Of a DNA stretch of 64,000 nucleotides, positions 1 through 41,420 are shown in pieces. The notes beneath the pieces were generated by a model. The model searched no databases. It had not been told where the DNA came from and worked only from the letters and a program-made list of their open reading frames with translations. The translations under genes and the position numbers were made by a program. This DNA is from Chitinophagales bacterium (GTDB lineage Bacteria > Bacteroidota > Bacteroidia > Chitinophagales > CAIOSU01): assembly GCA_026003335.1 (NCBI GenBank), contig BPHB01000002.1:857363-921362 (forward strand), in the 5' to 3' direction. Position 1 is the first letter of the stretch; the number at the start of each line of letters is the position of its first letter.

Positions 1-872
1 TCGTAGCCGTTGTCAAGCTGAGTGGAAAGCCAGTTCCACCCTACATCCCTGCGTTTTTGTGGTTTGCCGTTACTGCCGGCTTTATTTTCTTCATCCGGGG
101 GCTTTCCAAATTCGTGGTCATACCAGCCACTTCCGCTGACCTCAAATTTTTCTCCACGCACATATATATCGCCCTGAACGGTACAGCGCGGGATGAAATA
201 ATAAAACATGTTTTCGGCTGAAACCCCCAGCACTACTCCGTTATCACCGTGTCGCACCGGTGGTTTTTCGGGTTTGAGGTTGATGGTGCAGCCTATTTGC
301 TGTTCTTCATCATAGAGATGCAGGTCATAAGAGTTGTCCGCTCGTTTGCTGTAGGTATTCCCGTCAATGTATAATTCCAGCTGATCCATGCTCACCCTGA
401 CATCTTCTTTTATCAGGCGGTCAGGATAAGGCACCTGTCCCTTCTTCAGCATCTCAATGACAGCTCTGCGCAGGCGATGGTCTTTAACTATCTCTCCTTT
501 TTCTACTTTTTCCAGTCCAATCTTCGGGGTAACCTTATCCACCAATGAAACGGGGAAATATTTTTCCCTGCGTTCATCGCCTTTTTCATCATAAATAGCC
601 CATGTGATGGAGTGTCCGTAATTGAACCTTTTATTTTTTTCATCATATTCAATCAACCTGCGAAAAAAGGAAGCAAAGAAAGAAAACTGGCGACCCGAAG
701 GCGTGGATACATGGGCATTGATGTACCACCATTCTATGGTTGAGGACGCATGTGGCAGGTCATGCACTGTAAGATCAATAGGGCCGGGAGGTGGCCAGTC
801 GGTCGGATGTTTAAATCGCCCTGTCCTGTAGGTCTTGCTGGTTGCGGGTTTAGCCTTTACGCGTGTCTCCAT
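1..872 (-). CDS. CrtC/AttH-like lipocalin-fold hydratase family protein (N-terminal part; gene continues beyond window start)
   Basis: Absent from the ORF track because it has no stop inside the window. My minus-strand translation from the ATG at 872-870 stays open to position 1: METRVKAKPATSKTYRTGRFKHPTDWPPPGPIDLTVHDLPHASSTIEWWYINAHVSTPSGRQFSFFASFF...VSGSGWYDHEFGKP... The EWWY..H and WYDHEFG strings match what I recall of the hydroxyneurosporene synthase (carotenoid 1,2-hydratase)/AttH family. Family assignment is from memory. Confidence 0.55.
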   Translation of the reverse strand, partial: METRVKAKPATSKTYRTGRFKHPTDWPPPGPIDLTVHDLPHASSTIEWWYINAHVSTPSGRQFSFFASFFRRLIEYDEKNKRFNYGHSITWAIYDEKGDERREKYFPVSLVDKVTPKIGLEKVEKGEIVKDHRLRRAVIEMLKKGQVPYPDRLIKEDVRVSMDQLELYIDGNTYSKRADNSYDLHLYDEEQQIGCTINLKPEKPPVRHGDNGVVLGVSAENMFYYFIPRCTVQGDIYVRGEKFEVSGSGWYDHEFGKPPDEENKAGSNGKPQKRRDVGWNWLSTQLDNGY

Positions 873-922
873 TGGTTTTTAGGCGTACAAAGTTCTGTTT
901 TATTTCTTGAACTGAACAAAAA

Positions 923-1855
923 TTACGCCCGATGAAAAAACATTTTTTCAAAGGAGATGATGGTATTAAACCCTTTGTCCTTAAAATAGTGTATAACCTG
1001 ATTTACCGGCATGTCAGAACAGGCCATCACGAAGTCGCCACCCCATGCACCCAGTGACTTTACGGACCCCGGGAAATCCGGAAAAAGCAGCGTCTTAACC
1101 TTCTCCATGTGAAGCAGCTGAGCAAGGATATCTTCATGCTCTTCCATGAGCGATGCGAAGACGGCAGCTGAAGTGCAGCTAATCATGTTTTCGGTGATTG
1201 CAGAAATTTTAGTAACAAGGGAGGTATCTTTATACAGCCTGCGATAACTGCTCACGGCTTGCTGACTATTCTGTTTTTTCTCCAGATGGACGAAAAACAG
1301 CTGATGGGCGAAGGGTGGATTAAAATCAATCTCGTGCCAAAGTGGTTGCCCCTGACTTAACTGATAAACAACAGGGCGCGATGCACCGGCACAGGCTATG
1401 TCATATCCTGAACCGTCAGACACCGCAAAAAGCAGTTCAAACGGGTTGGTAGCTGACCAACACGCAATATTCCATATCAGAGAAGAGCTGCTGCCCAAGC
1501 CCCAGTTTAGGGGAAATTCCAGTTTTGCAGTTGCTTTAAGCGGATGAGGTGCTGCTAAAAATTGCGGATTCCTTTTGCGTGCTTCCCGTAAGAGTTCCTG
1601 CAGCAGGTAATGGGAGAGAGAGCCTTCTTTCTTCAGCACGCGAAAGTCAGTAGTCTCAAACGTGAGAGCCATCAACAGCTTATCGCGCTCATCACGGGTT
1701 TCCCAATACAAAAGATTCTCACGCCCCCCAGCAGGACGTATCTCCAGATGCTGTCCCATGCTGGTAGGAATGGCAAGTGCCCTGGCTCCTTCAAGGACTA
1801 AATATTCCCCGCTGAGCAGCAATTTGCCATGTGCATAAAAATGCCTTGGGGGCAT
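923..1855 (-). CDS. GHMP-family kinase (GYDIA subfamily), putative mevalonate-pathway kinase
   Basis: 310-aa ORF. It has the N-terminal HGKLLLSGEYLVLEGA, a GHMP motif-II-like PLNWGLGSSSSL and a GSGYDIACA string. It starts 4 nt downstream of the HMG-CoA reductase stop on the same strand. Confidence 0.75.
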   Translation of the reverse strand: MPPRHFYAHGKLLLSGEYLVLEGARALAIPTSMGQHLEIRPAGGRENLLYWETRDERDKLLMALTFETTDFRVLKKEGSLSHYLLQELLREARKRNPQFLAAPHPLKATAKLEFPLNWGLGSSSSLIWNIACWSATNPFELLFAVSDGSGYDIACAGASRPVVYQLSQGQPLWHEIDFNPPFAHQLFFVHLEKKQNSQQAVSSYRRLYKDTSLVTKISAITENMISCTSAAVFASLMEEHEDILAQLLHMEKVKTLLFPDFPGSVKSLGAWGGDFVMACSDMPVNQVIHYFKDKGFNTIISFEKMFFHRA

Positions 1856-1859
1856 CGGA

Positions 1860-3197
1860 TTATTTCTTTCCTACTCCGGTAAGCGGTGGGCGAATGGAAA
1901 TCAGAAAATTCCTCACTGCGGCATAAGATACCACGTGATGCTTGAAATATTCTTTAGCTTTTTCGGTTTCCTCTTCCGTTGCTTCAAACTGCTTGAGAAT
2001 ATTCAATAGGTGCATTTTCATGTGTCCTTTTTGAATTCCCACCGTTGTCATGGATTTCACTGCCGAAAAGTTATTGGCAAGGCCCACAGCAGAAGCAATC
2101 ATCATCAGTTCTCTGGCGGTGGGATTGCCCAGCATTTCAAGCGATAGTTTCACCAACGGATGCAGAGTGGTGAGACCCCCTACCACACCAAGCGCCATGG
2201 GCAGCTCTACTGCGAAGTGGAATTTTCCTCCATCCAGCTTGATATCCGAGAGGCTTTGATAGCGCCCCGAACGGGCAGCATACACGTGTGCACAGGCTTC
2301 TGTTGCGCGAAAGTCATTACCGGTAGCAATGACTACCGCGTCTGCGCCATTCATTATTCCCTTATTATGGGTGGCAGCACGAAAAACATCCACCTTGGCA
2401 ATCTTAATGGCCTTTGCAAATTTGGTTGCAAATTCTTCGGGTTGCATGCCCTCAATCACACCCAGCTCATGAATGGGGCATTCAACCCAGGTTCTGACAA
2501 TGCAATCGGGAGTGTAATTGGAAAGAATACTCATAATGACGCGGACATCCCGTTCCTCATCTGTAAAATCAGGATACACCAGTGCTTCCTGAGTCAGTGT
2601 GGCAGCAAAGTTTTCCAGCACGGAATTGATAAAGTTAGCCCCCATGGATTCGCATGTTTCAAAGGTAGCTTTTAGCTGATAGTAGTCCGGATCATACGAG
2701 GTCATATTTATCAGCTCAATATCCAGTATTCCGCCTCCGCGTTTTTCCATATTGCGGGTAATGGGATGCGCATTACGTATGAGGATTGGTTTGATATGAC
2801 GGATAAATTTTTTCAGTTTATGAAAATCTCCCCGCCAGGAAAAATGTACCTGCCCGATTTTTACGGTAGAAATGACTTCGGAGTGAAATCCGCCCCTCTC
2901 CAGCCAGAACTTGGCGCTACCTGCTGCAGCAGCTACTACCGAGCTTTCTTCAATTACCATAGGCACAGCATAGATCTTACCATTGATCATGAAGTTGGGA
3001 GCCACGTTGTATGGCATGTAAAAATTGGTAAGAGTATTTTCACTGAACTCATCAAAGAGCTTTTGCAGCTTTTCATCGTTATGCCAGTAGCTTTTGAATT
3101 CCTGTATAACCGCATCAGGGTTTTTAAAAAAATTGTGTGCCACCCATTCCAGCTTGGCCTGCTTGGAAAGTTTGGAGAAGCCTTCTACTCTTTTCAT
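1860..3197 (-). CDS. Hydroxymethylglutaryl-CoA reductase (class II-like)
   Basis: 445-aa ORF with VIEESSVVAAAAGSAKF, ESMGANFINS and ALGVVGGLT blocks typical of HMGR catalytic domains. The size fits bacterial class II enzymes. Confidence 0.88.
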   Translation of the reverse strand: MKRVEGFSKLSKQAKLEWVAHNFFKNPDAVIQEFKSYWHNDEKLQKLFDEFSENTLTNFYMPYNVAPNFMINGKIYAVPMVIEESSVVAAAAGSAKFWLERGGFHSEVISTVKIGQVHFSWRGDFHKLKKFIRHIKPILIRNAHPITRNMEKRGGGILDIELINMTSYDPDYYQLKATFETCESMGANFINSVLENFAATLTQEALVYPDFTDEERDVRVIMSILSNYTPDCIVRTWVECPIHELGVIEGMQPEEFATKFAKAIKIAKVDVFRAATHNKGIMNGADAVVIATGNDFRATEACAHVYAARSGRYQSLSDIKLDGGKFHFAVELPMALGVVGGLTTLHPLVKLSLEMLGNPTARELMMIASAVGLANNFSAVKSMTTVGIQKGHMKMHLLNILKQFEATEEETEKAKEYFKHHVVSYAAVRNFLISIRPPLTGVGKK

Positions 3198-3208
3198 ATT
3201 TTATGTTT

Positions 3209-4264
3209 TTATTGACGCACTTTTAAATAAGCATACGCCAGCTCCAGACCTTTGATTTGCCCGGCAATAAATTGTCGGAGCTGCTCATAGCTGTTGCGGG
3301 CATGCTCAAGGAGAGCCGAGCCCTGACCGTATACACTATTGGCCTGCAGCCTGTTTATCAGATAGTATCCATCCAAAAATGATTTGATGCCACCGGAGAT
3401 AATCACTTCGCGGCATAAAGCCTTTTTGCCCAGCTGTTGCAGGATTTGATTTGTAAAGTTTACCATTTCCGCGGCATCATGCCCCAGGTAGGCCACTTCA
3501 TCATACAGTGCACGCTGACTTGCCTTACTTCGCAGGAGTTCCACTTTGGAAAAGTTCGTGCCTCCGTGGGCTGCAAAATCCACGGCAGCCAAAGGCAAGC
3601 GGAACAATTCCCTGAGGCTCTGCGGGCCCATCCCCTGCCCTACCTCTTTTACGATGACTTTATAGCTGGCTTTTTCCAGCAGGGCTTTGATAGTATCCAG
3701 CGGTCTATGTTGTATTTTGTCGCCCTCTGGCTGCAGCCATTCCTGCAGGGGATTGATATGAATAATCAGACCATCGGCCTGCAGACGGACGACAAGGTTG
3801 TCTATGAGGTGTAACTTTTTGTCACGCACACAGGCCTCTACCTGTGCAATACCAAGGTTCGCATAAAAAGGACGGTCATCCCCCACAAGGGAGCGGAGGT
3901 TAAAATCATCAAAATAGCTATTGCCTTCCAGCAATATTCTGCAGGAGCCCAACCCCATGCCCAATCCAAACTCCCTGCAGGCCAGGGCAAGATTACGATT
4001 TATCTTATTTGCAAGCACGGTGCCCCCCGTCATACTGGAAATCCATAAAGGAGCCTTCATCGTTTTACCAAGAAAAGTAATGGGTTTGAGCGGCTCCGGA
4101 TGAGCTGACAAAACAGGCTCATAAAAAAACCTGGTATCCAACTGTCCATTCAACTGTGACTTAAAAGCCAGGGTGATATGATCTTTCTTGCGTGCAGAAG
4201 TTTTCTTCTCAGTTGTTTTTTCCTTTTGCACTCTGTTTTTTTGAACAGACATGATGGTTTCCAT
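3209..4264 (-). CDS. fni: Isopentenyl-diphosphate delta-isomerase, type 2 (FMN-dependent)
   Basis: Motifs WISSMTGG, LIIHINPLQE, VIVKEVGQGMG, AAHGGTNF and IISGGI. The track start at 4312 is a TTG that would overlap the HMGS gene. The ATG at 4264 (METIMSVQ...) leaves an 8-nt gap, so I prefer it. Confidence 0.9.
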   Translation of the reverse strand: METIMSVQKNRVQKEKTTEKKTSARKKDHITLAFKSQLNGQLDTRFFYEPVLSAHPEPLKPITFLGKTMKAPLWISSMTGGTVLANKINRNLALACREFGLGMGLGSCRILLEGNSYFDDFNLRSLVGDDRPFYANLGIAQVEACVRDKKLHLIDNLVVRLQADGLIIHINPLQEWLQPEGDKIQHRPLDTIKALLEKASYKVIVKEVGQGMGPQSLRELFRLPLAAVDFAAHGGTNFSKVELLRSKASQRALYDEVAYLGHDAAEMVNFTNQILQQLGKKALCREVIISGGIKSFLDGYYLINRLQANSVYGQGSALLEHARNSYEQLRQFIAGQIKGLELAYAYLKVRQ

Positions 4265-4272
4265 ATTCCGGT

Positions 4273-5763
4273 TTAATGATGTCTGGTTACACTTTGTCTG
4301 GTTATACCGCAATCTGAATTTGCCGCTTTACCGGATTCCGTCATCTGCGCACGGCCTTTAGTGGCTCCAGCTTTGGGGGCCGCAAAAGCATAGGTTCTTA
4401 CACCATAAAGTGGTTCTGCAGTGGCTACCGATTTGAGATAAAATTCATCTTCAGGAGGTAGTATGCTCTCCGTGATACTTCCGCTATGAAGGGCTTCATA
4501 CACATCAAAATCAATCGGTGTTCTTTGAAGCAAAGCATCAAACAAACCAAATTTATCCACGATGGGTTTCCACTCCTTTTGTACAACCCCTTCAAAAACC
4601 TTTGACTTTGATCCGCTGCCGTAAGTGCAAAAACCTACCCTCATGTTTTCCAGAGGCGTTCCATCTCTTAAATCTGATTCCAGTAAACTCATCAGTGATA
4701 AGAATACAGAACCGGTATAAAGGTTGCCTGTGAGGGATGAAGCCCTTTGTCCTTTTTCTATTTTTTCTCTAACAAATTGCTGATACAGAGGGGTTTTTGC
4801 AACTGTTTTTAAAGATTTGTTTTCCGGAAAAGAAGGGTCTTCTTCCAGTAATTGCTTACGCAACTCCGGATTGCGGATATATTCTTCCAGGAAGATTTCC
4901 GGAAACATTCTTTTTCCATGAAAGGCATAAGGCAGATGAAAAACGATACGCCCCCAGTCGCTGAGTTTATGCCGCGCTTTCAAACGGCTAAAATGCATAT
5001 AAGCCTGTTTTAACCTATTGGCGTAACATGTATTGGAATAAGGTCCATCAAAGACGGGAAATATTTTATGTATATCCAGGTAAGCTTCTTTGTCAGATAG
5101 AAACGGAAATGCGAACCCATCGGGAAGCTTGTCGCGGCTTATGCGTCTGAGGGGTTTAAAAAAATCGTGTTCACTGACTGCAGCAACGCCCACCGGTTCT
5201 TCTATTGCCAGCAGGCGGGGTTTCTGTCTGATCAGCAGGGCAACCGCTCCGGCACCCTGCGTATATTCCCCGGTGCTGCCCAGTTCATAGCGTGCATTAT
5301 CGGTACAAATCACAATGGCCGTGCGATTCTCACCCAGGCGTACCCAATCCAGTGTGTTATGCAGGGCATCCACCCCTCCGATGCAGGCAAAGGTCATGTC
5401 AACAACATCTGTATGCAGGAATGCGTGCGGGCCGTATTCGGGGTTGAAATAATCCGATAACATTGCCAGCACGTAGGATGCCAGCGGCTTTGCCCCGTCC
5501 ACAAGGCTTTCTGATCCAACATAAATTCTTCCGATTTCCTGAGGAGATAACTTATTTTTTTCTATAAGTTTTCTGGCCGCATTGGCCGCCATGGTTGCAG
5601 CATCTTCGTGTACGTCAGTAAGGCTCATGGCTTCAAGCCCCAGCCCGTCTTTGAGTTTTCCACAATCCAGATTACGGTGCCGGGCAAGTATCTCAATGGG
5701 CAGATATAACCTCGGAATATGAAAGGCCATATCATCAATACCGGTGAGAGGGGTTTGTTTCAT
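4273..5763 (-). CDS. Hydroxymethylglutaryl-CoA synthase
   Basis: 496-aa ORF with a thiolase-fold initiation-enzyme pattern: GIDDMAFHIPRLYL, an active-site-like DMTFACIGGVDAL, TQGAGAVALL and CTYGSGS. It sits immediately upstream of IDI2 and HMGR. Confidence 0.88.
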   Translation of the reverse strand: MKQTPLTGIDDMAFHIPRLYLPIEILARHRNLDCGKLKDGLGLEAMSLTDVHEDAATMAANAARKLIEKNKLSPQEIGRIYVGSESLVDGAKPLASYVLAMLSDYFNPEYGPHAFLHTDVVDMTFACIGGVDALHNTLDWVRLGENRTAIVICTDNARYELGSTGEYTQGAGAVALLIRQKPRLLAIEEPVGVAAVSEHDFFKPLRRISRDKLPDGFAFPFLSDKEAYLDIHKIFPVFDGPYSNTCYANRLKQAYMHFSRLKARHKLSDWGRIVFHLPYAFHGKRMFPEIFLEEYIRNPELRKQLLEEDPSFPENKSLKTVAKTPLYQQFVREKIEKGQRASSLTGNLYTGSVFLSLMSLLESDLRDGTPLENMRVGFCTYGSGSKSKVFEGVVQKEWKPIVDKFGLFDALLQRTPIDFDVYEALHSGSITESILPPEDEFYLKSVATAEPLYGVRTYAFAAPKAGATKGRAQMTESGKAANSDCGITRQSVTRHH

Positions 5764-5881
5764 AACTGGATTTTTTAAATACGCACCCTATTATGGGGCG
5801 TCAAAATTTATCAAAAAAGAAACCCCCATTATTGATGATTATCAAATTAAAAACCAGTGCAATTTGATGTAGAACCGGTTT

Positions 5882-7486
5882 CTACACTACAGCAGAATTC
5901 GTTTTTTTATTTTTTTTCATTTTGCGGTAAACCTCAGGAGAGGTTCGGCCTCTTACGGATACCTTTTCGTAAACCTCGTCAAAAGCCTGTTCGCATAAAG
6001 GAAGTTGTTCACGCATTTTATCATAGGCTGAGTGATCAAACATCTGCCTGAATTGGTCTCTTGTCAACATCGTACGGGCGTAAAGCGCCTGATAACCAGA
6101 ATGCTGCAGGACAAATTGCTCCAGACGGGGTAGCTCTACAGACGCATCAAACCCAGCTTTTCGCGGGGCGCCATATGCACCAATGTCTACGTATAGCTCA
6201 TCAATTTGCGCATCGGGTTTTTTAAACGGATGCAAAAAACCGATATGCTTTTCATTATCATAAATTGCCATCGGGCACAGCCACAGGGGATACAAATCAA
6301 AGTGCGATTGAAAATATTGCAAGGCGTCAGCCAGATAAAATATAGGGATGAGCATATCCTGCACGATATGATACCTATCGCGTAGTCGGGCTGTTGTTTC
6401 CGTCTGAGTATATTTCAACAGTGGTATCTTAGGAGGCACTGCCCATCCCAACAGAAAGCGAAAAACCGGATGATTGCCAAAAGGAATAATTTGTTCCATC
6501 TCCCAGAAAAAACTACGGGTGTGGCGATGATAGTAATGACGCAAAGGGATGTACTCCCCCATGCTGTCGGCATGATGCAGCATTTTTTCCACATGCTTAT
6601 AAAACCAGGGCTTATACCATCGTCCAATCGGATTGATGCGTTTTTTTTCGCCAGCAGGTACTTCATCGGTAAGCTGCCCACACAGAATAACGGCTTTATC
6701 CTGGCTGAAGACCAGCGCTTCTACAAAATCATTATCGGCCACATTTCTGCTTTCGGCCTCAAATATGCGCACTAACTCCTCTTGAGAATGAGCTTGCTTA
6801 TAGTGCATACGCACGTATTTTTTTGCTGGTATGATTTTTAATTCAGCTGCAACCAGAAAGCCCAGAGTGCCATGACTCCAGGGGATCAGATAAAACAATT
6901 CACTGTTTTGAGTTCTGCTGCACCGCAACAAAGTGCCGTCAGGCGTAAGCAGCTCAAAAGCTTCGCAGGAATATTGAAAGAGTCCGTATTTATGGCTGCT
7001 GGTTTCCACACCAAAACCCATAATCAGACCGCCCACGGTCAGATCATCAAGTTCGGGTACTACCGGTACCGTCCACCCTCTGGGAATGAGAGTCGCAGTA
7101 AGCTGACCCATCGTTACCATGGGTTCAACCCGCACAACACGCCTCTGCTCGTCTATTTCCAGTACATCTCTGAGATTTACCGGTATATTGCGATAAATTT
7201 TTTTGTATTTAGGTACCAGTTCGCTCATGGTGCTCCATCCCGAGCGTGCTGTGCAGAGCTTTTCTCTGGCGCCCTCATTACGCCATTGTTTGAGGTGCTG
7301 CTGAATTTTTCGTACACGTTCCTCGTGCAGGGCCGGAGCGCTACGCAGCAAAAGCGTTATCTTGTTTCGCAAAAAGAAGTACAAGTCATAGACGACAGAA
7401 AGCGGCAGCAGAAAGACGACCGCAAATACACCGCGATAATGCGTAAGCAGATATTCAAACAGACCCGAAGACTGATTGTTTTTCAT
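5882..7486 (-). CDS. Delta(24)-sterol reductase-like FAD-linked oxidoreductase (DHCR24/DWF1 family)
   Basis: Blocks [95 protein letters not shown] and YPLWLCP closely match animal DHCR24 and plant DWF1 as I recall them. There is an N-terminal hydrophobic helix. In-frame ATGs lie at 7555, 7519 and 7486; I chose 7486, which gives the smallest overlap with the upstream cyclase. Confidence 0.85.
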   Translation of the reverse strand: [534 protein letters not shown]

Positions 7487-9758
7487 TCGGATTAAGGTAA
7501 TGTTGACTTTCCAGCACATGTTTGCAACGAGATAAAGCCCACAAAGGGAAAACATTACGATAAGATGTATAAGTAATCATACAGTTATGGTTGAAAACCC
7601 CGCTTATGTTTTCCTGCGGCCAATCTCCATCGGTTTGTTGTCGCTGCAGCAGCAAAGTCATCCCTTTTTGAGCTCCGGCTCGGGCTTCCGGAAAATCACA
7701 GTTAAGCAGCGACATAACTGCCCAGGCGGTATGAATAATTTGGGAATGATCCGTCTCTGTATAGAGCTTTTTCACGCAAGACTGATAAGACTCGCCCCAT
7801 CCGCCATCGGACTTCTGCTTGGATAACAGAAACATCCCTGCCCGATAGAGTGCGTCAAGCATCTGTTTACGTAAGGCATTATCTACAGGCATGAACCCTT
7901 CCTGCATCGCGCGTAAATATGCGCGCAGTGCCTCGGTTGCAAACCATGTTCCATAGGTGAAGCAAACAGCCCACGAGCCATACCAGGAGCCATCGGGGCG
8001 TTGTTGTCGCAAAATAAAACCTATTCCGCGCCTTACGGCATCAGAGATCTGCGATGATTTATAATCAGGGTAGTGCCTGTTGAAAAGCAACAAAGCCTGT
8101 ACACATGCAGACGAGCACTCCGTGTAAGAATAGTCAATCATGATATTACCAAAAACCTCAGAAGGATTGAGCAACTCAAGCCATGCCGGACCCCGTGTGC
8201 ATTCGTAAGTTGCCCATCCCCCATCTTTGTTTTGCATGGATAATATCAGATTGACGGCCTGCTGCAATCTATTATCAGATATATTTTTTTTATCTACGAG
8301 ATCGTGCGTATGTATCAGCAAAACTGTTTTCAACCCCTCGGCCGTGCAATCGCTAATGGGCCATCCATGTTCAGAAGTGGAGAAGGGCCATCCGCCTACA
8401 GAATCGTGCCTGTAAAATTTTTTGTGCTCGCGGATTTCTTCCTTAATCTGTGCTACATCCAGATAATGGTATGCTTTTTCAATAAGGGGGTAAAAGTCGG
8501 AGGCTAGCCCTGATTCCATAATGGCCTGCGTGGCAAAGGCGGTATCCCATAGCTGCGAGCCGTTGTACCCCTGCATTTTCATACCATCTTCAGCCAGCCA
8601 AAGATAATCAAACCATCTTTCATAATGCTTTTTGAAAGCCTCCGAGTCTTTTCCGAACGCATGCCATACAACAATAGAGTTGATTACCTGATTGACGGGG
8701 CCTATGTTAATATACCCGGTATGATCATCTTCTGCACAGATGTAGCTGAGGATAAAATTTAATGCTCGTGACCTGAAAGCAGATATTTTTATTTTTTCAT
8801 ACACGTTGAGGAGCCGGTTTAAAAATTTCAGTACTCCTGACTGGGGGAAATATAAGTCGGTGGATGCACAGGCGTTCCTTGCCTGTATCCAGTCAATTTC
8901 CGCATAGGGCCGGGTGTAAATTTCCGTGCGCAATGCTTCGGTTAGCCTGGTGGTTCTTCCGGTGACACGATGACCGTAGCAATAAGACATAGGTAAATAC
9001 ACCATGCGTGCATGACACCAGAAGCGAGAGGGATGAAAGGGCAGACTTTCAGGCAGGAGCCACATTTCAGGGAACAATGAATTACATCCTTCCCATTCAT
9101 ACACTCCCAGCACGCTTAGATAAAATTTGCCCCAGGAAGGCACTCCAGTTGCTCCGCCATGAGCATGTATCCACGCACGTGCTTGAACCAACTCGGGTTC
9201 ATCGGGAGCATGCCCTAAAATCCTGAGAGCCACGTATTGCAGCACCGTTCCAAACATTGTGGAAGGACCTTCCAGATGCATACCCCAGCCTCCATCAGCA
9301 TTTTGATGGTTCAGAAAATAACGGGCAATAAGTGCACGGTGCGGGGCAGGCAAGGGCGATTCGGTTATATAAGAAGCAATAATCAGTCCCGGCAATAAAA
9401 ACATGGGCCCGCCATAATCTCCGGGCCAATAGCCTCCGGAGGTTTGCAAACGGGCATAAAATTCAATAGCTTTTCGTAGGGCTCCATTTAAACCAGTTTG
9501 CTGAGAAGGCTGATGTCTTTGGCCATTGGGGTGTTGGGCGGCTGCATGCCAGCGGTAAACTTTGTCTGAGCTGTTGACATTGCTGGTTTTGCTCCTGACA
9601 AAGGAAGCCGCCATTTCTTTCAGAAAAACACGCCCCCGCGGACCTTGCCAGTCTTCTTCAGTAAAATGATCAAAAGGCTCCGGAGGGCAAAATTGCCAGC
9701 GCTGTCTTCCATCCGGATCAAACAGTGGTTTCCAATATTTCCAATACGTTGTATTCAT
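7455..9758 (-). CDS. Oxidosqualene cyclase (cycloartenol-synthase-like)
   Basis: It has the DCTAEG catalytic motif (WPISDCTAEGLK) rather than the DxDDTA of squalene-hopene cyclases. It carries multiple QW repeats (QNADGGWG, QNKDGGWA, QRPDGSWYGSW, QKSDGGWGES, QQTDGDWPQ), plus MQGYNGSQLWDTAFA and an N-terminal GRQRWQF. An alternative ATG lies at 9791. Confidence 0.92.
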   Translation of the reverse strand: MNTTYWKYWKPLFDPDGRQRWQFCPPEPFDHFTEEDWQGPRGRVFLKEMAASFVRSKTSNVNSSDKVYRWHAAAQHPNGQRHQPSQQTGLNGALRKAIEFYARLQTSGGYWPGDYGGPMFLLPGLIIASYITESPLPAPHRALIARYFLNHQNADGGWGMHLEGPSTMFGTVLQYVALRILGHAPDEPELVQARAWIHAHGGATGVPSWGKFYLSVLGVYEWEGCNSLFPEMWLLPESLPFHPSRFWCHARMVYLPMSYCYGHRVTGRTTRLTEALRTEIYTRPYAEIDWIQARNACASTDLYFPQSGVLKFLNRLLNVYEKIKISAFRSRALNFILSYICAEDDHTGYINIGPVNQVINSIVVWHAFGKDSEAFKKHYERWFDYLWLAEDGMKMQGYNGSQLWDTAFATQAIMESGLASDFYPLIEKAYHYLDVAQIKEEIREHKKFYRHDSVGGWPFSTSEHGWPISDCTAEGLKTVLLIHTHDLVDKKNISDNRLQQAVNLILSMQNKDGGWATYECTRGPAWLELLNPSEVFGNIMIDYSYTECSSACVQALLLFNRHYPDYKSSQISDAVRRGIGFILRQQRPDGSWYGSWAVCFTYGTWFATEALRAYLRAMQEGFMPVDNALRKQMLDALYRAGMFLLSKQKSDGGWGESYQSCVKKLYTETDHSQIIHTAWAVMSLLNCDFPEARAGAQKGMTLLLQRQQTDGDWPQENISGVFNHNCMITYTSYRNVFPLWALSRCKHVLESQHYLNPNEKQSVFGSV

Positions 9759-9797
9759 TAAGTAAGTTGTACAATGCAACCAAATACGCATGCAATC

Positions 9798-9813
9798 TCA
9801 TCATTAATGATGA
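9798..9813. promoter_or_regulatory. 16-bp perfect palindrome TCATCATTAATGATGA in the divergent spacer between the cyclase arm and the squalene synthase arm (candidate operator)
   Basis: Read directly; every one of the 8 base pairs around the 9805/9806 centre is complementary. Any function is inferred from position only. Confidence 0.3.
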
Positions 9814-9885
9814 ATGCAGGATTGATAAATGTTAAAATTCCTGTTTCGGACGGTTTCTAATTTTCACTAGTAATTATTCAGCACC

Positions 9886-11094
9886 ATGATACGGGAACTT
9901 ATACAATCCATGGAGCACCCATCGGAAATTATTGCCATGTTGCGGCTGAAGCTGGGTGGCTTTGACCTGGCTCACAACAAAGAGCCCCTTGACGTGGTTG
10001 CGGAGAAGTCCAGTGATAAATATTTCTGCTATGCTGCACTGAATGCGGTATCCCGATCTTTTGCCGTTGTGATTCAACAACTACCAGAAGAGCTCAAAGA
10101 TCCGGTATGTGTGTTTTATCTGGTTTTGCGAGGATTAGACTCCATTGAAGATGACATGACCTACCCCAGGGAGAAAAGGCTTCCTCTGCTCAGAAATTTT
10201 CACGCCAAGCTCTACCAGGAAGGATGGAACATTTCAGGAGTAGGAGACCAGAAAGACTATCGTCTGCTTCTGGAAAATTTTGACAAGGTTATCCGGGTAT
10301 TCAAAAAGTTAGATCCTGCATATAAAAATGTCATTGCAGATATCTGCGAGCGCATGGGTAACGGTATGGCTGACTATGCAGAGCGTTCAGTGACCACACT
10401 GGAAGACTATAACGAATATTGTTTTTATGTAGCCGGATTGGTGGGTATAGGTTTGTCCAATCTTTTTTCCGCATCCGGGCTGGAATCTCCAGAACTGCAA
10501 AAGCGAGAAGACCTTTCCCGGTCAATGGGCCTGCTGCTGCAGAAAACAAATATTTCGCGCGACTATTATGAAGACCTTAGCCTCGGACGTGCTTTCTGGC
10601 CTAAGGAGGTGTGGGGGAAATATTCAGATAATCTGGAATTGCTGCACAATGAGCCTGAGTCCAAAGCTGCGCTGGCTTGTCTGAATGAGTTAGTAACTGA
10701 TGCCCTGCAGCATGTTTCCAACTGTGTGATTTATCTGAATATGATTCGCCATCCGCAGGTATTTCGCTTTTGCGCCATTCCGCAGGTTATGGCACTGGCT
10801 ACTTTGGCAAAAATTTATAACAATCCGAATGTGTTTACGGAAGTCGTTAAAATCCGAAAGGGGATAGCCGCGAAAATGATGCTTTACATGAAAGACATGA
10901 ACTCAGTGAGGAAAGCGATGCTGGAATTTGTAGGTGATATTCATTTGAAACTGGACCCTGAAGATCCGAATTTCCTGAACACCAAAAAGGCGCTCAACAG
11001 AATTACAGAAGCGCTGGATGAAGTGAAATGGCGTGACCTAAGTATTCTTCCGCCCCGCTTAAAGGAATCAGGTGTAACCAAAAGCCTTACATGA
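9886..11094 (+). CDS. Squalene synthase (eukaryote-type farnesyl-diphosphate farnesyltransferase)
   Basis: 402 aa. It has the N-terminal HPSEIIAMLRLKLGG, YLVLRGLDSIEDD (first Asp-rich motif), YCFYVAGLVGIGLS, LQKTNISRDYYEDL and AIPQVMALATL. The C-terminus (KESGVTKSLT) has no hydrophobic tail. Confidence 0.9.
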   Translation: MIRELIQSMEHPSEIIAMLRLKLGGFDLAHNKEPLDVVAEKSSDKYFCYAALNAVSRSFAVVIQQLPEELKDPVCVFYLVLRGLDSIEDDMTYPREKRLPLLRNFHAKLYQEGWNISGVGDQKDYRLLLENFDKVIRVFKKLDPAYKNVIADICERMGNGMADYAERSVTTLEDYNEYCFYVAGLVGIGLSNLFSASGLESPELQKREDLSRSMGLLLQKTNISRDYYEDLSLGRAFWPKEVWGKYSDNLELLHNEPESKAALACLNELVTDALQHVSNCVIYLNMIRHPQVFRFCAIPQVMALATLAKIYNNPNVFTEVVKIRKGIAAKMMLYMKDMNSVRKAMLEFVGDIHLKLDPEDPNFLNTKKALNRITEALDEVKWRDLSILPPRLKESGVTKSLT

Positions 11095-12488
11095 ACGGCA
11101 TGCCCGCACAGATGCTCGCCCCGAAAACAGCGAGCGTATCCTCTGATAATGCCTATGTTTCCCAGGAATGGTATGATGTCTGCATCATCGGTGCCGGAGT
11201 GGCCGGTGGTGTGCTGGCAGCCTTTCTTGCCGATCATGGCAAGCGGGTAGCAGTCATTGAGCGCAATCTGGCGGAACCCGATCGCATCATCGGAGAGTTG
11301 CTGCAGCCCGGGGGGCTGCAGCAACTCTCCGCTATGGGCCTAAACCATCTGACCGAAGGTTTTGACGCACAGCCTATTGAAGGATATGCGCTGTTCATGG
11401 AGGGCAACAGCTTCAGTATCAAATATCCCGAAGGAAAAACCGGCAGAGGCTTCCGCAACGGCAAATTCATTAAAAAAATACGCGACTATCTTAGCTCCCA
11501 TCCTCACGTTACGCTTATAGAAGGGAGGGCGGATGACCTTGTTGAATCAAACGGAATCATTTGCGGAGTAAAATATCTTAGCAGCTCCGACCGACAGCAT
11601 CGCCAAGTTCATGCTTTCCTCACCGTAGCCAGTGATGGCATGTTTTCTTCTTTCAGAGAAAAACTTGCATACGGTGACAAGAAAGTTACCGGCTATTTTC
11701 TTGGTCTCATTCTCAAAGGATGTCTTCTTCCCCACCCCAATCATGGCCATGTAATCATCACCGACACCTCTCCCTGCCTGGTTTATCCTATTAGCTCGCA
11801 AGACATCCGGATATTGATTGATTTTCCCGGTGAACAACCTCCGCCAAAAGGAGTTGAGCTGATTTGTTTTCTGAAAGAAAAGATTGCTCCTCAACTTCCG
11901 CAATCTATACAACCTTCCTTTCTGGAAGCGATTGCAGAAAGTAAGTTCCGCTTTATGCCTAATCATCTCATTCCGGCCCGTCCGTGGTTCAAACAAGGGG
12001 CCGTGCTGTTGGGGGATTCGCTGAACATGCGCCATCCTCTTACCGGTGGAGGCATGACCGTTGCCCTTACGGATGTATATGTTTTAGGTTCACTTTTGCT
12101 TGAAAAGAAAAACACCTTTAACAGCCGTGCACTTGCCCTGGTAATACGAAGATTCTACCAACAACGCAGCAGCCACAATGCCACCATTAACATTCTGGCA
12201 GATGCTCTGTATAAAGTCATGAGGAGTCGCGAGCTCAAAATCGCCTGTTATAATTACCTGAAGCGCGGCAGCACCTACGCCTCCGAACCCGTGGCTATCC
12301 TCTCGGCCATCTCAAGAGACGTCCGTCTGCTGCTGAAGCATTTTTTTGCCGTAGCCTTTTTCGGAGCTTTTGACTTGCTTAAGCCTTATCCCACTTTATC
12401 AGGAGTCAAACGCGCTGTCCTTATGGTGCATGACGCAGTACGTATTATTTTTCCTCTTATACGAAACGAGCGCTTTAAGATCTTTTAA
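11091..12488 (+). CDS. Squalene monooxygenase (flavoprotein squalene epoxidase)
   Basis: It has VCIIGAGVAGG (GxGxxG), ERNLAEPDRIIGELLQPGG and GDSLNMRHPLTGGGMTVAL, as in eukaryotic SQLE/ERG1 as I recall them. Its start overlaps the squalene synthase stop (ATGA at 11091-11094). Confidence 0.9.
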   Translation: MNGMPAQMLAPKTASVSSDNAYVSQEWYDVCIIGAGVAGGVLAAFLADHGKRVAVIERNLAEPDRIIGELLQPGGLQQLSAMGLNHLTEGFDAQPIEGYALFMEGNSFSIKYPEGKTGRGFRNGKFIKKIRDYLSSHPHVTLIEGRADDLVESNGIICGVKYLSSSDRQHRQVHAFLTVASDGMFSSFREKLAYGDKKVTGYFLGLILKGCLLPHPNHGHVIITDTSPCLVYPISSQDIRILIDFPGEQPPPKGVELICFLKEKIAPQLPQSIQPSFLEAIAESKFRFMPNHLIPARPWFKQGAVLLGDSLNMRHPLTGGGMTVALTDVYVLGSLLLEKKNTFNSRALALVIRRFYQQRSSHNATINILADALYKVMRSRELKIACYNYLKRGSTYASEPVAILSAISRDVRLLLKHFFAVAFFGAFDLLKPYPTLSGVKRAVLMVHDAVRIIFPLIRNERFKIF

Positions 12489-13718
12489 CTAATACACCGC
12501 AATTTTTTGTTTAAACACTAAAGCGCCATCGTCCGTAATTACAGAAATTATGAACATGCCTCTTCCCATAAGCGGTATTTCGCTTATGGATGTATATCCT
12601 TCTGTATCCAACAGGATTCGCCCGGTGAGGTCCATTATGCGGATGTGATAAGTATATTCGGAATCGCCCTGTACACGTATATAAAGCACTTTGTTTTTAA
12701 CTTCTGTCATCACGCTTGTGCAATACCGCGGCCGCTGTTCAGGTAATGTAGTTGCCAATTTCCCGCTGAAAAGTAACTCTGCATAGACCGGAAGGTGATC
12801 GCTCATATAGTAAAGCGCTTGGCTGATATTTTCCGGCACGCAGACTCCCACTGGCGGATCAATAACCGCCTTATTAAAGTGCAGCCCGCAGTTGCCTATT
12901 GCCCTGCAGGATCCGGGAATCAGCTGCAGCCTATTTGCTCCGCTGGTTATATCTGCTGAATGAAAAATAAAATCAAACCGGTCATCCAGTCCACCAGTAG
13001 CACCACCGCCAAATGCCGCCAGTCGCGTGCTTTGCGTATGCAAGGCGGCAAAGTCAGGGTTGTTGCTCCATATGCCGGCCTGCAGCGGATCAAAGAGTGG
13101 CACCTCAGCCAATGAATCTACCAGAAGCTGGTAGCCTGCTTCCGAATAGGAATAGAAATTAAAGTCCCCACCAGCAAGAATGTTGACCGGTTCATCTAAG
13201 GCTTCATAAAACGCTTTAAGCCTAAGCAATTCATCATATCTCAGGTTTTCATTCTGGATGCCCTTACTGGAACGCAGATGCACTACAAACAGATTCAAAA
13301 AAACGGTATCCGTATAATTTAAGTAGTCGCCCTTTAAAAATATTTTGTAATAACTATGATCCCGTAAAGCAGTGGGAATATTTTCCTGGTGTACGATGCC
13401 TGTTTTTAATGCATTATAGAAAAGCATGTTGTCACTATCCGGTCCATTGATGAATGCAGCACGGGAATATGCGCCCGGAAAAACAGAATCTATTGCCTGA
13501 AGCAACATATCTGCTCCTGTATCATTAGTCAACTCACCAACCAAAAGCACATCAGGTTTTACAAAAGAGCAAATTTCTTTAAAATAAGTAGCCCGCTGCG
13601 GAGTACTGCCCGGATAATTCAACACATTATAATACATAACGCGCAGTGTATCCTGTGCATGCAGGATAATCTGCCCAAAGAGCAACAAAATTCCCAAAAG
13701 AGCCAAACGCAAATACAT
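12489..13718 (-). CDS. Secreted endonuclease/exonuclease/phosphatase (EEP) family protein with T9SS type A-like C-terminal sorting domain
   Basis: Signal peptide MYLRLALLGILLLFGQIILHAQ. EEP-like strings are RVMYYNVLNYPG, GGDFNFY and DRFDFIF..SDHLPVY. The C-terminal beta-rich ~80 aa ends in FKQKIAVY. Confidence 0.7.
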   Translation of the reverse strand: MYLRLALLGILLLFGQIILHAQDTLRVMYYNVLNYPGSTPQRATYFKEICSFVKPDVLLVGELTNDTGADMLLQAIDSVFPGAYSRAAFINGPDSDNMLFYNALKTGIVHQENIPTALRDHSYYKIFLKGDYLNYTDTVFLNLFVVHLRSSKGIQNENLRYDELLRLKAFYEALDEPVNILAGGDFNFYSYSEAGYQLLVDSLAEVPLFDPLQAGIWSNNPDFAALHTQSTRLAAFGGGATGGLDDRFDFIFHSADITSGANRLQLIPGSCRAIGNCGLHFNKAVIDPPVGVCVPENISQALYYMSDHLPVYAELLFSGKLATTLPEQRPRYCTSVMTEVKNKVLYIRVQGDSEYTYHIRIMDLTGRILLDTEGYTSISEIPLMGRGMFIISVITDDGALVFKQKIAVY

Positions 13719-13768
13719 CCGAAATCCCTGGCAAGATTAAGCCTTTGGAAGCCTGTAAAATGGATTAT

Positions 13769-16543: not shown

Positions 16544-16558
16544 GAAATCAGATTCAGG

Positions 16559-21045: not shown

Positions 21046-21129
21046 GAGGGCAAATTTATCATTTTAATAACCACTTGCTATGTCCCTGGCTGTGTTATAG
21101 TATTAACTTTACATTTCTCTGATTATTTC

Positions 21130-23862: not shown

Positions 23863-23919
23863 GATTTATGCTGCCAAAGGTAAGCAGCAGGAGGGTTTAA
23901 ATCTCTCGGAAGAGAGACG

Positions 23920-35832: not shown

Positions 35833-36134
35833 GGTAAATCAGATTTGATTGTGTATTACTAAGGAATAACTCTACTAAACTTTGCTTTAATGCAAAAAGC
35901 CGTTTATGTTAAAATGAAGTAAGGAATTAACGCTAAGTATTGTTTTCCTTGCTCAGGAAATCACGAAGGATTCGGGCACAATGTTAATCATTCTTTTTCT
36001 AAATTCAAATTTTTATACGGGTGCTGTTTTTGCAAGGATACATTATTCTGTCAGCATCTCTTTTCACTGCTGATATCCGTAAGTTTGCAGGCTATGCTGA
36101 AGTTGTTTGTCATCTTTTATTTTAAAGCACCTTT

Positions 36135-39844: not shown

Positions 39845-39901
39845 GTGGCAAAAATAAACGCACAGCGGGAGTTATGCTAAATTTACCAACCCTGCTTTTA
39901 C

Positions 39902-41372: not shown

Positions 41373-41420
41373 AATGCAGCGCCTCTTTAAGACCAAGGTA
41401 AATTTGTATTTTTAACACTG

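Follow-up and report, generated by a model that had tools for sequence, protein, structure and literature searches.

Among the Bacteroidota, Fluviicola taffensis and Eudoraea adriatica have the same core of squalene synthase (SQS), squalene epoxidase (SQE) and oxidosqualene cyclase (OSC) as the locus described here (Wei 2016; Banta 2017). In the passages of Wei 2016 on F. taffensis, the organism was a sterol producer when tested, with one sterol column marked; its gene stands in the cycloartenol-synthase column of a table (garbled in the text version), and these passages name no reductase homolog. The E. adriatica enzyme forms a pentacyclic arborane. Methylococcales loci carry OSC-SQE, CYP51, SdmAB and a DHCR24 homolog, with the reductase gene sometimes within 10 kb of OSC. 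The 'eukaryote-like' steroid pathway of Myxococcota and Dadabacteria, which are phyla other than that of the present host and have many tailoring genes, likewise combines the mevalonate pathway (MVA) with a single-enzyme SQS, SQMO and OSC (Hoshino & Gaucher 2021). Among steroid-producing bacteria, MVA plus SQS was found in that study only in myxobacteria and Dadabacteria, and its main text makes no mention of Bacteroidetes. The figure legend for the Sandaracinus amylolyticus sterol cluster marks isoprenoid-precursor genes inside it. Bacteroidetes mevalonate operons of the Flavobacterium johnsoniae type contain the same mevalonate enzyme set as the present cluster, including divergent mevalonate kinase (MVK) and phosphomevalonate kinase (PMK) (Hayakawa 2017, as cited in PMC6107057).

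The window, a 64,000-nt stretch of DNA, comes from the genome of a member of the Bacteroidota from a hot spring. Gene families were assigned by ORF calling and profile models (Pfam, TIGR and NF040656). The Bacteroidota host proposed in an initial annotation was borne out by proteins 100% identical to those of the MAG 'Chitinophagales bacterium KatS3mg031'. The cluster is real and unusually complete, with an almost full gene set from HMG-CoA to a plant-type sterol. It comprises 12 genes in ~16 kb, of which ~3.5 kb lie beyond window position 1 (window plus L001/L002 contigs); L001/L002 are an independent assembly of the same DNA (99.96–99.98% identity over 19.8 kb). The named members are HMG-CoA synthase (HMGS), HMG-CoA reductase (HMGR), MVK, a GYDIA-family kinase, diphosphomevalonate decarboxylase (MVD), type-2 isopentenyl-diphosphate isomerase (IDI2), a prenyl synthase fusion, SQS, SQE, OSC and a DHCR24 homolog. 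The gene identities and two-armed layout were thus read correctly at the outset, and the proposed linkage of precursor-supply to sterol genes is present in a more complete form than the window allowed, MVD and MVK lying beyond its edge. What sets the locus apart from Fluviicola and Eudoraea is that its core directly adjoins a complete lower mevalonate pathway and the DHCR24 homolog. Our literature search brought up no report of this arrangement for the Bacteroidota, in line with the earlier impression that it was undescribed.

The minus-strand junctions, recomputed from coordinates in transcription order, were −32, +118, +8, +11, +4 and +50 nt, exactly as first given. The absence of introns and the presence of overlapping genes were also confirmed. 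OSC (7455..9791, minus strand) and SQS (9886..11094, plus strand) are divergent across 9792..9885, a spacer of 94 nt if the longest OSC ORF is assumed and of 127 nt if OSC starts at Met12, within the ~100–130 nt first estimated. SQE (11091..12488, plus strand) overlaps the SQS stop through an ATGA. SQS is of the single-enzyme, eukaryote type: it passed the squalene-synthase equivalog cut-off (TIGR01559, 466 bits against 287) and scored at most 47 bits with the HpnC, HpnD and CrtB models. SQE matched PF08491 (SE, 279 bits) and FAD_binding_3. A gap of 118 nt (5764..5881) separates the sterol sub-arm (OSC-DHCR24) from the mevalonate sub-arm. A sequence scan of this gap found no exact TAnnTTTG or terminator-like site; an internal promoter or a weak terminator may lie there, and the minus arm may be split into two transcripts. 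The flanks are ordinary bacterial genes, as first described: hisS borders one side, and the other carries genes for an Exo_endo_phos protein, an ECF sigma factor and two CHU_C (T9SS) proteins. Housekeeping genes, RecR, Rho and MetH among them, lie further along.

HMGS (4273..5763, minus strand) scored over the cut-offs of PF01154 and PF08540, with 238 bits to TIGR01835, and shares 69% identity with the HMGS located after DHCR24 in a second genome, L003. IDI2, the FMN type (3209..4264, minus strand), matched TIGR02151 as its sole family (188 bits against a cut-off of 281), and has orthologs of 51–68% identity in other Bacteroidota mevalonate or OSC loci. The class II HMGR (1860..3197, minus strand) scored 282 bits with PF00368 and 254.6 with TIGR00532 (cut-off 259.95). 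MVD (348 aa) and then MVK (316 aa) follow 3′ of the fusion gene on the L002 contig, outside the window. As IDI2, HMGR and MVK score below their equivalog cut-offs, they are considered divergent members of their families. The GYDIA-family GHMP kinase (923..1855, minus strand; NF040656, 343 bits against a cut-off of 225) scored only 30 bits with the mevalonate kinase model. Because the operon also holds MVK and MVD, this kinase is by elimination the probable PMK.

The gene at the window edge (3..872, minus strand) was initially annotated as a CrtC/AttH-like protein. That name fits its N-terminus (PF07143 CrtC, 82 bits), but the 290 codons in the window are the first of 773, the remainder being cut off by the edge. 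In the full 773-aa protein (L002), two lipocalin-like domains, the first of them AttH/CrtC-like, are fused to a GGPPS-like polyprenyl diphosphate synthase. Its PDB profile matches were GGPP synthases and AttH (2ICH), and in its AF2 model (pLDDT 86) the N-domain resembles AttH and kievitone hydratase. At least 120 Chitinophagales/Bacteroidota protein clusters share this fusion. In the prenyl-synthase domain, the small residues G and S occupy positions −5 and −4 before DDVED. Instead of the fusion, 16 other Bacteroidota OSC loci have a stand-alone prenyl synthase; the single example inspected has Phe at −5. The sole prenyl synthase of the cluster is this divergent GGPPS-like fusion, which is no clear FPP synthase. 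Supply of FPP from within the cluster is uncertain, since the best matches of the fusion are GGPP synthases and the residues before DDVED are small.

A close relative, L083, also carries this IDI2-HMGR-GYDIA-fusion-MVD-MVK operon, there without adjoining sterol genes (52–81% amino-acid identity; HMGR 80%, fusion 81%). This order is conserved in Chitinophagales relatives of the cluster genome. Most likely, then, the mevalonate arm represents the housekeeping pathway of the lineage, and the earlier view of a dedicated precursor supply is not supported. Relative to the F. johnsoniae-type operon, the cluster and its Chitinophagales relatives include the AttH-prenyl-synthase fusion, and the cluster adds upstream HMGS and the squalene/sterol genes (SQS, SQE, OSC and DHCR24).

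OSC, of the cycloartenol-synthase type, scored 745 bits with TIGR03463 (below the curated cut-off of 851), 706 bits with TIGR01787 (above cut-off), 734 bits with human lanosterol synthase (1W6K) and 275 bits with the hopene-cyclase model (below cut-off), as expected of a cyclase that does not belong to the hopene type. It has the D481-C-T-A-E motif and, by comparison with 1W6K, the cycloartenol-synthase triad Y409, H475 and I479; a lanosterol-versus-cycloartenol residue rule is cited in a passage of Wei 2016. It shares a clade with the Methylococcales enzymes (52–55% identity), and in an NJ tree it nests among Bacteroidota, with other Chitinophagales sequences. From these sequence features its predicted product is cycloartenol. 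The DHCR24 homolog (5882..7486, minus strand; sterol delta24-reductase family, FAD_binding_4, PF01565 55.7 bits) overlaps the OSC end by 32 nt. It is 61–63% identical to Methylococcales proteins named delta24-sterol reductase (IMG, UniRef and NCBI), its closest named relatives, and ~52% identical over 505 aa to human DHCR24. The Methylococcus capsulatus homolog branches with metazoan DHCR24 (PMC2817430). Relatives of the protein adjoin SdmA/SdmB-type genes.

The locus is probably an isoprenoid/sterol supercluster native to the chromosome of an uncultured Chitinophagales bacterium. In it, a housekeeping mevalonate operon (IDI2, HMGR, GYDIA kinase, AttH-prenyl-synthase fusion, MVD and MVK) is joined upstream by HMGS and by a sterol cassette of the Bacteroidota type, in which SQE/SQS are divergent from OSC/DHCR24, and cycloartenol would be converted to cycloartanol. 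Acetoacetyl-CoA from elsewhere would enter the classical mevalonate route to IPP/DMAPP, and a short-chain prenyl synthase would provide FPP. SQS would then form squalene, SQE would convert it to 2,3-oxidosqualene and OSC would cyclize this to cycloartenol, of which the side-chain delta24 bond would be saturated by the DHCR24 homolog, with cycloartanol as the predicted product. Established here are the identities, order and junctions of the genes, their conservation in relatives and the diagnostic residues; we infer the enzyme activities, products and co-transcription of the cluster genes, and likewise that the cell obtains IPP from the mevalonate pathway alone. In plants, conversion of cycloartenol to cycloartanol (the SSR2/DWF1 branch) is the first step of cholesterol synthesis. 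The predicted chemistry is the same in both, with cyclization by a cycloartenol synthase and then delta24 reduction by a DHCR24-family enzyme. Unlike in the plant branch, no cyclopropyl isomerase, CYP51 or C-4 demethylase lies near the bacterial cluster, so that the bacterial pathway may end at cycloartanol. In Methylococcales, CYP51 and SdmAB serve to make 4-methyl sterols derived from lanosterol, whereas no P450 or Rieske domain was found in the window with Pfam; no other sterol-tailoring gene was found within 50 kb.

Arborane synthases are found among the OSC homologs of Bacteroidota (PMC12414744; PMC7306690), and the OSC score below the TIGR03463 cut-off would also fit an enzyme making a non-steroid triterpenol (pentacyclic arborinol/eudoraenol, as in E. 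adriatica), in which case the cluster would not be one for sterols. This is improbable: the substitutions W230S, H232Y and N697Y, reported to suffice for eudoraenol formation (human numbering; arborinol substitutions are listed in PMC12414744) are absent, W258, H260 and N734 being retained, with Y529 at human position 503, and a delta24 reductase gene overlapping OSC is sensible only if the product has an open isooctenyl side chain. It is likewise unlikely that the flavoprotein reduces something else, such as another isoprenoid double bond. We found no published assay of any bacterial DHCR24-family member, C-24 reduction in Myxococcota is carried out by an unrelated geranylgeranyl-reductase homolog (PMC12004948), and confidence in the AF2 model is just moderate (pLDDT 69). 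However, similarity to DHCR24 spans the full protein length, OSC is overlapped here and adjacent in L003, L026, L076 and Methylothermaceae, SdmA/SdmB-like genes lie beside one relative, and C-24 saturation in Methylococcales tracks the presence of the homolog in the passages of Wei 2016.

The initial annotation had also proposed a self-contained acetyl-CoA-to-sterol module, possibly horizontally mobile. All steps from HMGS to a reduced protosterol do lie inside 16 kb, the closest named relatives of the DHCR24 homolog belong to another phylum, and sterol genes are patchy in close relatives. A dedicated module moving as one unit is nevertheless unlikely. The cluster contains no thiolase, and its prenyl synthase is the GGPPS-like fusion only. 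Its composition is indistinguishable from that of the remaining window (GC 0.465 against 0.466; tetranucleotide z between −0.9 and +0.3). No tRNA was seen, no att-like or flanking repeats were found, and no integrase or transposase family was present among the Pfam-scanned ORFs. OSC groups with Chitinophagales and has no close plasmid homolog (best plasmid match, 36% identity), and L083 keeps the mevalonate operon without the sterol genes. Among the best 80 OSC loci in species-representative genomes, at least one mevalonate gene lay within 10 kb of OSC in 11 of the 49 Bacteroidota loci; this linkage is partial and takes five differing layouts, which points to repeated local rearrangement and not to one transferred cassette. 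The sterol genes are strongly eukaryote-like (OSC shares 43–46% identity with the cycloartenol synthases of plants, and the reductase resembles human DHCR24 as above), but an assembly chimera or eukaryotic contamination is hardly credible. A Logan contig (run DRR290133) spans window positions 1–19791 and all junctions at 99.975% identity, including the one at 12.5 kb where a chimera had been considered; L003, from a different study, retains the OSC-DHCR24-HMGS order (66–71% identity); and the genes are overlapping and intronless, on a 1.12-Mb contig near T9SS genes, with Bacteroidota-type promoter motifs in the window.

The view that sterol genes occur in only a few Bacteroidota is outdated, this phylum accounting for 49 of those best 80 loci. 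Within these 80, 26 of the 49 Bacteroidota loci have both SQS and SQE no more than 10 kb from OSC, and neither mevalonate genes nor SQS were found near OSC in any of the 29 gammaproteobacterial loci (mostly Methylococcales). The divergent SQE-SQS/OSC layout is common to many Bacteroidota loci. The combination of the mevalonate pathway with SQS in the present cluster is from a member of the Bacteroidota, outside the groups credited with it by Hoshino & Gaucher 2021.

The left end of the window was occupied by a two-armed cluster of mevalonate-pathway and sterol genes. ORF listing and profile searches identified on the minus strand, in the direction of transcription, an oxidosqualene cyclase (OSC; 7455-9791), a 534-residue FAD_binding_4 protein (PF01565) homologous to DHCR24 (5882-7486), HMG-CoA synthase (HMGS; 4273-5763), a type-2 IDI (IDI2; 3209-4264), a class II HMG-CoA reductase (HMGR; 1860-3197), a GHMP kinase of the GYDIA family (923-1855) and the start of a CrtC/AttH-like protein (3-872), the N-terminus of a larger fusion. 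The divergent plus-strand arm consisted of squalene synthase (SQS; 9886-11094), recognized by profile search, and squalene epoxidase (SQE; 11091-12488). The gene list was the one claimed in the initial annotation, and its junctions (-32, +118, +8, +11, +4 and +50 nt, and the ATGA overlap of SQS with SQE) were identical when recomputed from the coordinates, the end of the OSC gene and the DHCR24-homolog gene overlapping by 32 nt. The flanks were likewise ordinary bacterial genes; besides the type IX secretion genes (two CHU_C proteins) and the ECF sigma factor described there, they include a gene for an Exo_endo_phos protein. The SQE gene and the convergent Exo_endo_phos gene meet stop codon to stop codon (12488/12489) with zero spacer, so there is no space for a terminator between the two. 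A perfect inverted repeat of 19 nt with a 3-nt loop (CGGAGAGTTGCTGCAGCCC GGG GGGCTGCAGCAACTCTCCG) was found at 11291-11331 (+); it lies within the coding region of SQE, some 200 nt from the start of the gene.

The proteins of the window were 100% identical to entries named 'MAG: Chitinophagales bacterium' (locus tags KatS3mg031_23xx) on a 1.12-Mb contig; judging from the naming, the genome probably comes from the Katase hot-spring sediment (52 °C), the paper on which (PMC9671151) mentions neither sterols nor mevalonate. A 25-kb contig from a separate assembly (L001/L002; run DRR290133) matched window positions 1-19791 at 99.975% identity. Beyond position 1, this contig carried the fusion gene, then diphosphomevalonate decarboxylase (MVD) and a GHMP kinase resembling mevalonate kinase (MVK), followed by a small PF1765-like gene and by hisS on the other strand. 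The cluster comprises 12 genes in about 16 kb. It covers the route that begins with HMG-CoA synthase and ends in a protosterol with a reduced side chain, complete save for thiolase, which was found neither in the cluster nor on L002, and an unambiguous FPP synthase; with these two missing, the self-contained acetyl-CoA-to-sterol module first proposed is not supported.

The OSC was compared with lanosterol synthase and with hopene-cyclase models. In an alignment with human lanosterol synthase (1W6K; 734 bits), D481-C-T-A-E was placed at human D455-CTAE, DCTAE thus replacing DxDD. The protein scored 744.7 bits with TIGR03463 and passed TIGR01787 (706 bits, cut-off 323), and it failed the hopene-cyclase model TIGR01507 (275 bits, cut-off 431). 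Its assignment as an OSC and not a squalene-hopene cyclase was therefore borne out by the motif and by the difference between the OSC and SHC models (745 vs 275 bits). The score of 744.7 bits lies under the 851-bit NCBIfam curated osq_cycl cut-off (TIGR03463); the catalytic residues and the 734-bit match to 1W6K were taken to outweigh this, and the protein is regarded as a divergent bacterial member of the family. The public NCBI label of this protein is 'squalene-hopene cyclase', and that of the DHCR24 homolog is 'hypothetical protein'.

Residues Y409, H475 and I479, at human positions 381, 449 and 453, follow the cycloartenol-synthase pattern. Lanosterol synthases have Thr, Cys and Val at these positions, and Tyr at 381 and His at 449 are the cycloartenol-synthase residues of plant CAS1. 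Ile vs Val at position 453 is used as a discriminator of cycloartenol and lanosterol synthases in Wei 2016. Some Bacteroidota OSC homologs produce pentacyclic arboranes, and the substitutions W230S, H232Y and N697Y (human numbering), with or without changes at 503 and 521, were reported to be sufficient for eudoraenol synthesis (PMC12414744). An arborinol/eudoraenol synthase is unlikely here, given the retained W258, H260, N734 and Y529, with Phe at position 521 as in the human enzyme. Because the Y/H/I pattern is present and the eudoraenol substitutions are absent, cycloartenol is the predicted product. Fluviicola taffensis, also of the Bacteroidota, was tested and makes a sterol; its gene stands in the cycloartenol-synthase column of a table whose text is garbled (Wei 2016).

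SQS scored 465.7 bits with TIGR01559, above the equivalog cut-off of 286.75, and 47, 34 and at most 36 bits with HpnD, HpnC and CrtB, respectively; it is thus of the single-enzyme, eukaryote type, HpnC, HpnD and CrtB not being matched. SQE matched PF08491 (SE) with 279 bits (cut-off 20.1) and FAD_binding_3 with 61 bits.

The DHCR24 homolog is a VAO-type FAD_binding_4 protein with full-length homology to DHCR24 and an N-terminal hydrophobic helix, placed at residues 18-47 in an AF2 model of moderate confidence (pLDDT 69). BLASTP against human DHCR24 aligned residues 10-514 (505 residues) at 52% identity with a score of 551 bits, figures that serve as a lead rather than as a database result; a match of this size is nevertheless not attributable to chance. 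The PDB offered no DHCR24 structure, only generic VAO-family matches such as DprE1 and cytokinin oxidase. The nearest relative (71% identical) was on the contig of L003, a Chitinophagaceae MAG from another study, and the next nearest were 61-64% identical, many of them from Methylococcales and named delta24-sterol reductase by IMG, UniRef or NCBI; one adjoins Rieske/3β-HSD genes of the SdmA/SdmB type. The homolog of M. capsulatus branches with metazoan DHCR24 (Desmond and Gribaldo, PMC2817430), and side-chain saturation in Methylococcales goes with the presence of a DHCR24 homolog (Wei 2016). NADPH-dependent delta24 sterol reduction is the predicted activity of the window protein, with correlative support drawn from the Methylococcales lipid profiles. 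In a neighbour-joining (NJ) tree, nine DHCR24 sequences were too few to resolve whether transfer ran from Bacteroidota to Methylococcales or the reverse. A metagenome scan with the DHCR24 homolog returned only relatives of 43-58% identity in its long matches, together with what looked like eukaryotic exon fragments; none had mevalonate neighbours, and so the scan did not extend the lineage of the window. Two DHCR24-homolog loci were considered as Bacteroidota clusters and rejected: P0003 proved to be unclustered, and P0005 had an SdmAB context of the Methylococcales type.

In the mevalonate arm, HMGS, HMGR and MVD each reached family cut-offs (MVD on L002 with 176 bits for TIGR01240, above its cut-off), and MVK (69 bits, cut-off 163) and IDI2 (188 bits, cut-off 281) were under theirs yet were the best and only matches. 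The GYDIA kinase would be the phosphomevalonate kinase (PMK), a call that follows from its family, of NCBIfam type 'hypoth_equivalog'. A Bacteroidetes mevalonate pathway with divergent MVK and PMK has been described (Hoshino and Gaucher 2018, PMC6107057, citing Hayakawa 2017). The fusion protein (773 aa; window 3-872, L002 10984-13305) combines an AttH domain, a second lipocalin-like domain and a polyprenyl synthase, and its AF2 model was confident (pLDDT 86). Its N-domain matched AttH (2ICH) and kievitone hydratase, members with CrtC of a family that hydrates terminal prenyl double bonds; its synthase domain, with GGPP synthases as the closest solved structures, has DDVED with Gly and Ser at -5 and -4 and a second motif DDALN. 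The joining of a hydratase-type domain to a prenyl-chain synthase is unusual. The same three domains were found in all of at least 120 protein clusters, the named ones being from Chitinophagales or Bacteroidota, and in its Chitinophagales/Bacteroidota carriers the fusion lies inside mevalonate operons. As it also occurs in operons without nearby sterol genes, we do not link it to sterol chemistry.

One such operon was in L083 (GCA_034440455.1; fusion 81% identical), with the order IDI2-HMGR-GYDIA-x-fusion-(toxin/antitoxin)-MVD-MVK and 52-81% amino-acid identity to the window genes. Its neighbourhood contained no HMGS and no sterol gene, the upstream genes being unrelated (YqeY, colicin V production protein). 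A ParE-type toxin/antitoxin pair lies between the fusion gene and MVD in this operon (12357-13001). In a second relative, the fusion stood beside the GYDIA kinase only. The contig also carried, some 20 kb from the fusion, an OSC 56% identical to that of the window; its neighbours were an AraC-type regulator and a DUF2147 protein, and SQS, SQE and mevalonate genes did not flank it. The mevalonate arm is a native one with a probable housekeeping role, and on the simplest reading HMGS and the sterol genes would have come to sit upstream of an already existing housekeeping mevalonate operon.

The cluster had also been proposed to be horizontally mobile, and misassembly at about 12.5 kb was considered as another source of the arrangement. 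The GC content was 0.465 inside the cluster and 0.466 outside, and tetranucleotide distances across it (6-kb windows) had z values of -0.9 to +0.3, so that positions 1-12.5 kb and the rest were alike in composition. The only strong outlier of the 64 kb was the T9SS cargo region at 14001-20000 with its two large CHU_C genes (z = 4.3), which probably reflects repetitive adhesin-like coding sequence. No tRNA was found in the window, att-like repeats were limited to short chance matches, and no integrase or transposase family was detected, either in the main ORFs (120 aa or longer) scanned with Pfam/NCBIfam or among the Pfam tags of the L002 extension. Of the OSC homologs on plasmids, the best was only 36% identical. 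The second assembly bridges all junctions, including that at about 12.5 kb, leaving a chimeric contig without support. An NJ tree built from 78 OSC sequences, which carried no support values, paired the window enzyme with that of L003 inside a Chitinophagales/Bacteroidota group, and the order OSC-DHCR24-HMGS was kept in L003 (66, 71 and 69% identity). We favour a reading of the cluster as a native neighbourhood of the chromosome. The part of the earlier interpretation that stands is an unusually complete mevalonate-plus-sterol cluster, and mobility and self-sufficiency were set aside. The cluster is real, with cycloartenol and cycloartanol as predicted products.

The frequency of mevalonate-sterol linkage was assessed by an OSC-alignment scan with one genome per species, which gave 225 loci; the best 80 of these were analysed (49 Bacteroidota, 29 Gammaproteobacteria, mostly Methylococcales, 1 Chlorobiota and 1 Polaromonas). 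Among these best 80 of 225, the 49 Bacteroidota loci had, at up to 10 kb from the OSC, both SQS and SQE in 26, a stand-alone polyprenyl synthase in 16, at least one mevalonate gene in 11 (8/29 of those with full flanks) and a DHCR24 homolog in 3; SQS or a mevalonate gene near the OSC was found in none of the 29 gammaproteobacterial loci. The one stand-alone synthase that was read, in L004, has Phe at -5 before DDxxD, which by the usual chain-length rule suggests a short product. Mevalonate genes near Bacteroidota OSCs occurred in five layouts scattered across the OSC tree. Proximity of mevalonate and sterol genes is thus a recurrent Bacteroidota theme, of which the window is the fullest example among the best 80 of 225 loci. 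In a midpoint-rooted NJ tree of the OSCs (L003-L082; no support values, no eukaryotic outgroup), Methylococcales formed one derived clade nested among Bacteroidota lineages, a pattern hinting that much of the diversity in this OSC group lies within Bacteroidota. A membrane-anchored AraC-type regulator adjoins the OSC in eight Bacteroidota loci (L024, L025, L029, L037, L038, L049, L078 and L089), accompanied in six, all but L029 and L078, by a DUF2147 protein; these are candidate sterol-linked regulator and binding proteins, and both are absent from the window cluster.

Most junctions of the cluster overlap or are at most 11 nt long, which fits co-transcription; the exceptions are the gaps in front of HMGS (118 nt) and in front of the fusion (50 nt), which could hold internal signals. 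The two intergenic regions of the cluster contained no exact match to TAnnTTTG, the Bacteroidota -7 motif, and no terminator match, and sigma-70/terminator scans gave nothing decisive there. The motif was rarer than expected in the whole window (26 found vs 51 expected), with several copies located some 5-55 nt ahead of ORF starts, including those of the ECF sigma factor, a glycosyltransferase and MetH; examples of copies are at 21051-21058, 23875-23882, 36080-36087, 39849-39856 and 41399-41406. The other 50 kb of the window is housekeeping in character (RecR, Rho, RNase P protein, MetH, RsgA, Dtd, Sua5, YbeY, glycosyltransferases). A PcrB-family gene (41421-42200, +), of the geranylgeranylglyceryl- or heptaprenylglyceryl-phosphate synthase type and about 30 kb from the cluster, is a further isoprenoid consumer. 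P450, Rieske, ERG24-like and methyltransferase families were not detected by Pfam in this 50 kb, and the pathway would end at cycloartanol unless the genome has tailoring genes elsewhere.

Bacteroidota sterol genes (Wei 2016), Bacteroidetes mevalonate operons (PMC6107057) and bacterial DHCR24 homologs (PMC2817430) were already known singly, and literature searches on Chitinophagales, Bacteroidota or Fluviicola with sterol or mevalonate gave no account of this arrangement. The sterol cluster of Sandaracinus amylolyticus includes isoprenoid-precursor genes (2025 paper, PMC12004948, legend of Fig. 2a), as does that of the window, so the clustering of precursor and sterol genes has precedent in another phylum. 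According to the main text of the widely cited survey of Hoshino and Gaucher 2021, in which Bacteroidetes are never mentioned, only myxobacteria and Dadabacteria among steroid-producing bacteria join the mevalonate and SQS routes. The window locus contradicts this generalisation; mevalonate/SQS and sterol genes are also joined in the 11/49 Bacteroidota OSC loci with partial linkage (among the best 80 of 225), and a very eukaryote-like DHCR24 is additionally found in a few Bacteroidota loci.

Surveys of genomes by protein name will overlook such sterol loci, given labels such as 'squalene-hopene cyclase' and 'hypothetical protein'. For heterologous production of cycloartenol or cycloartanol, the 16-kb block could serve as a cassette almost as it stands, with only thiolase and possibly FPP synthase missing. 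Bacterial sterol synthesis bears on the reading of sterane biomarkers and on the origin of eukaryotic sterol genes, and the locus is relevant both to bacterial sterols and to eukaryogenesis. We consider it conceivable, if rather doubtful, that Chitinophagales and, beyond them, Bacteroidota in general form a third lineage of bacteria with a full eukaryote-type front end (mevalonate pathway, single-enzyme SQS, squalene epoxidase, cycloartenol-type OSC and canonical DHCR24), here in one locus making cycloartanol. If this were true, the case for myxobacteria and Dadabacteria alone as lineages with a eukaryote-like pathway, and for that reason as the likely sterol-gene exchange partners of early eukaryotes, would have to be reopened for Bacteroidota.
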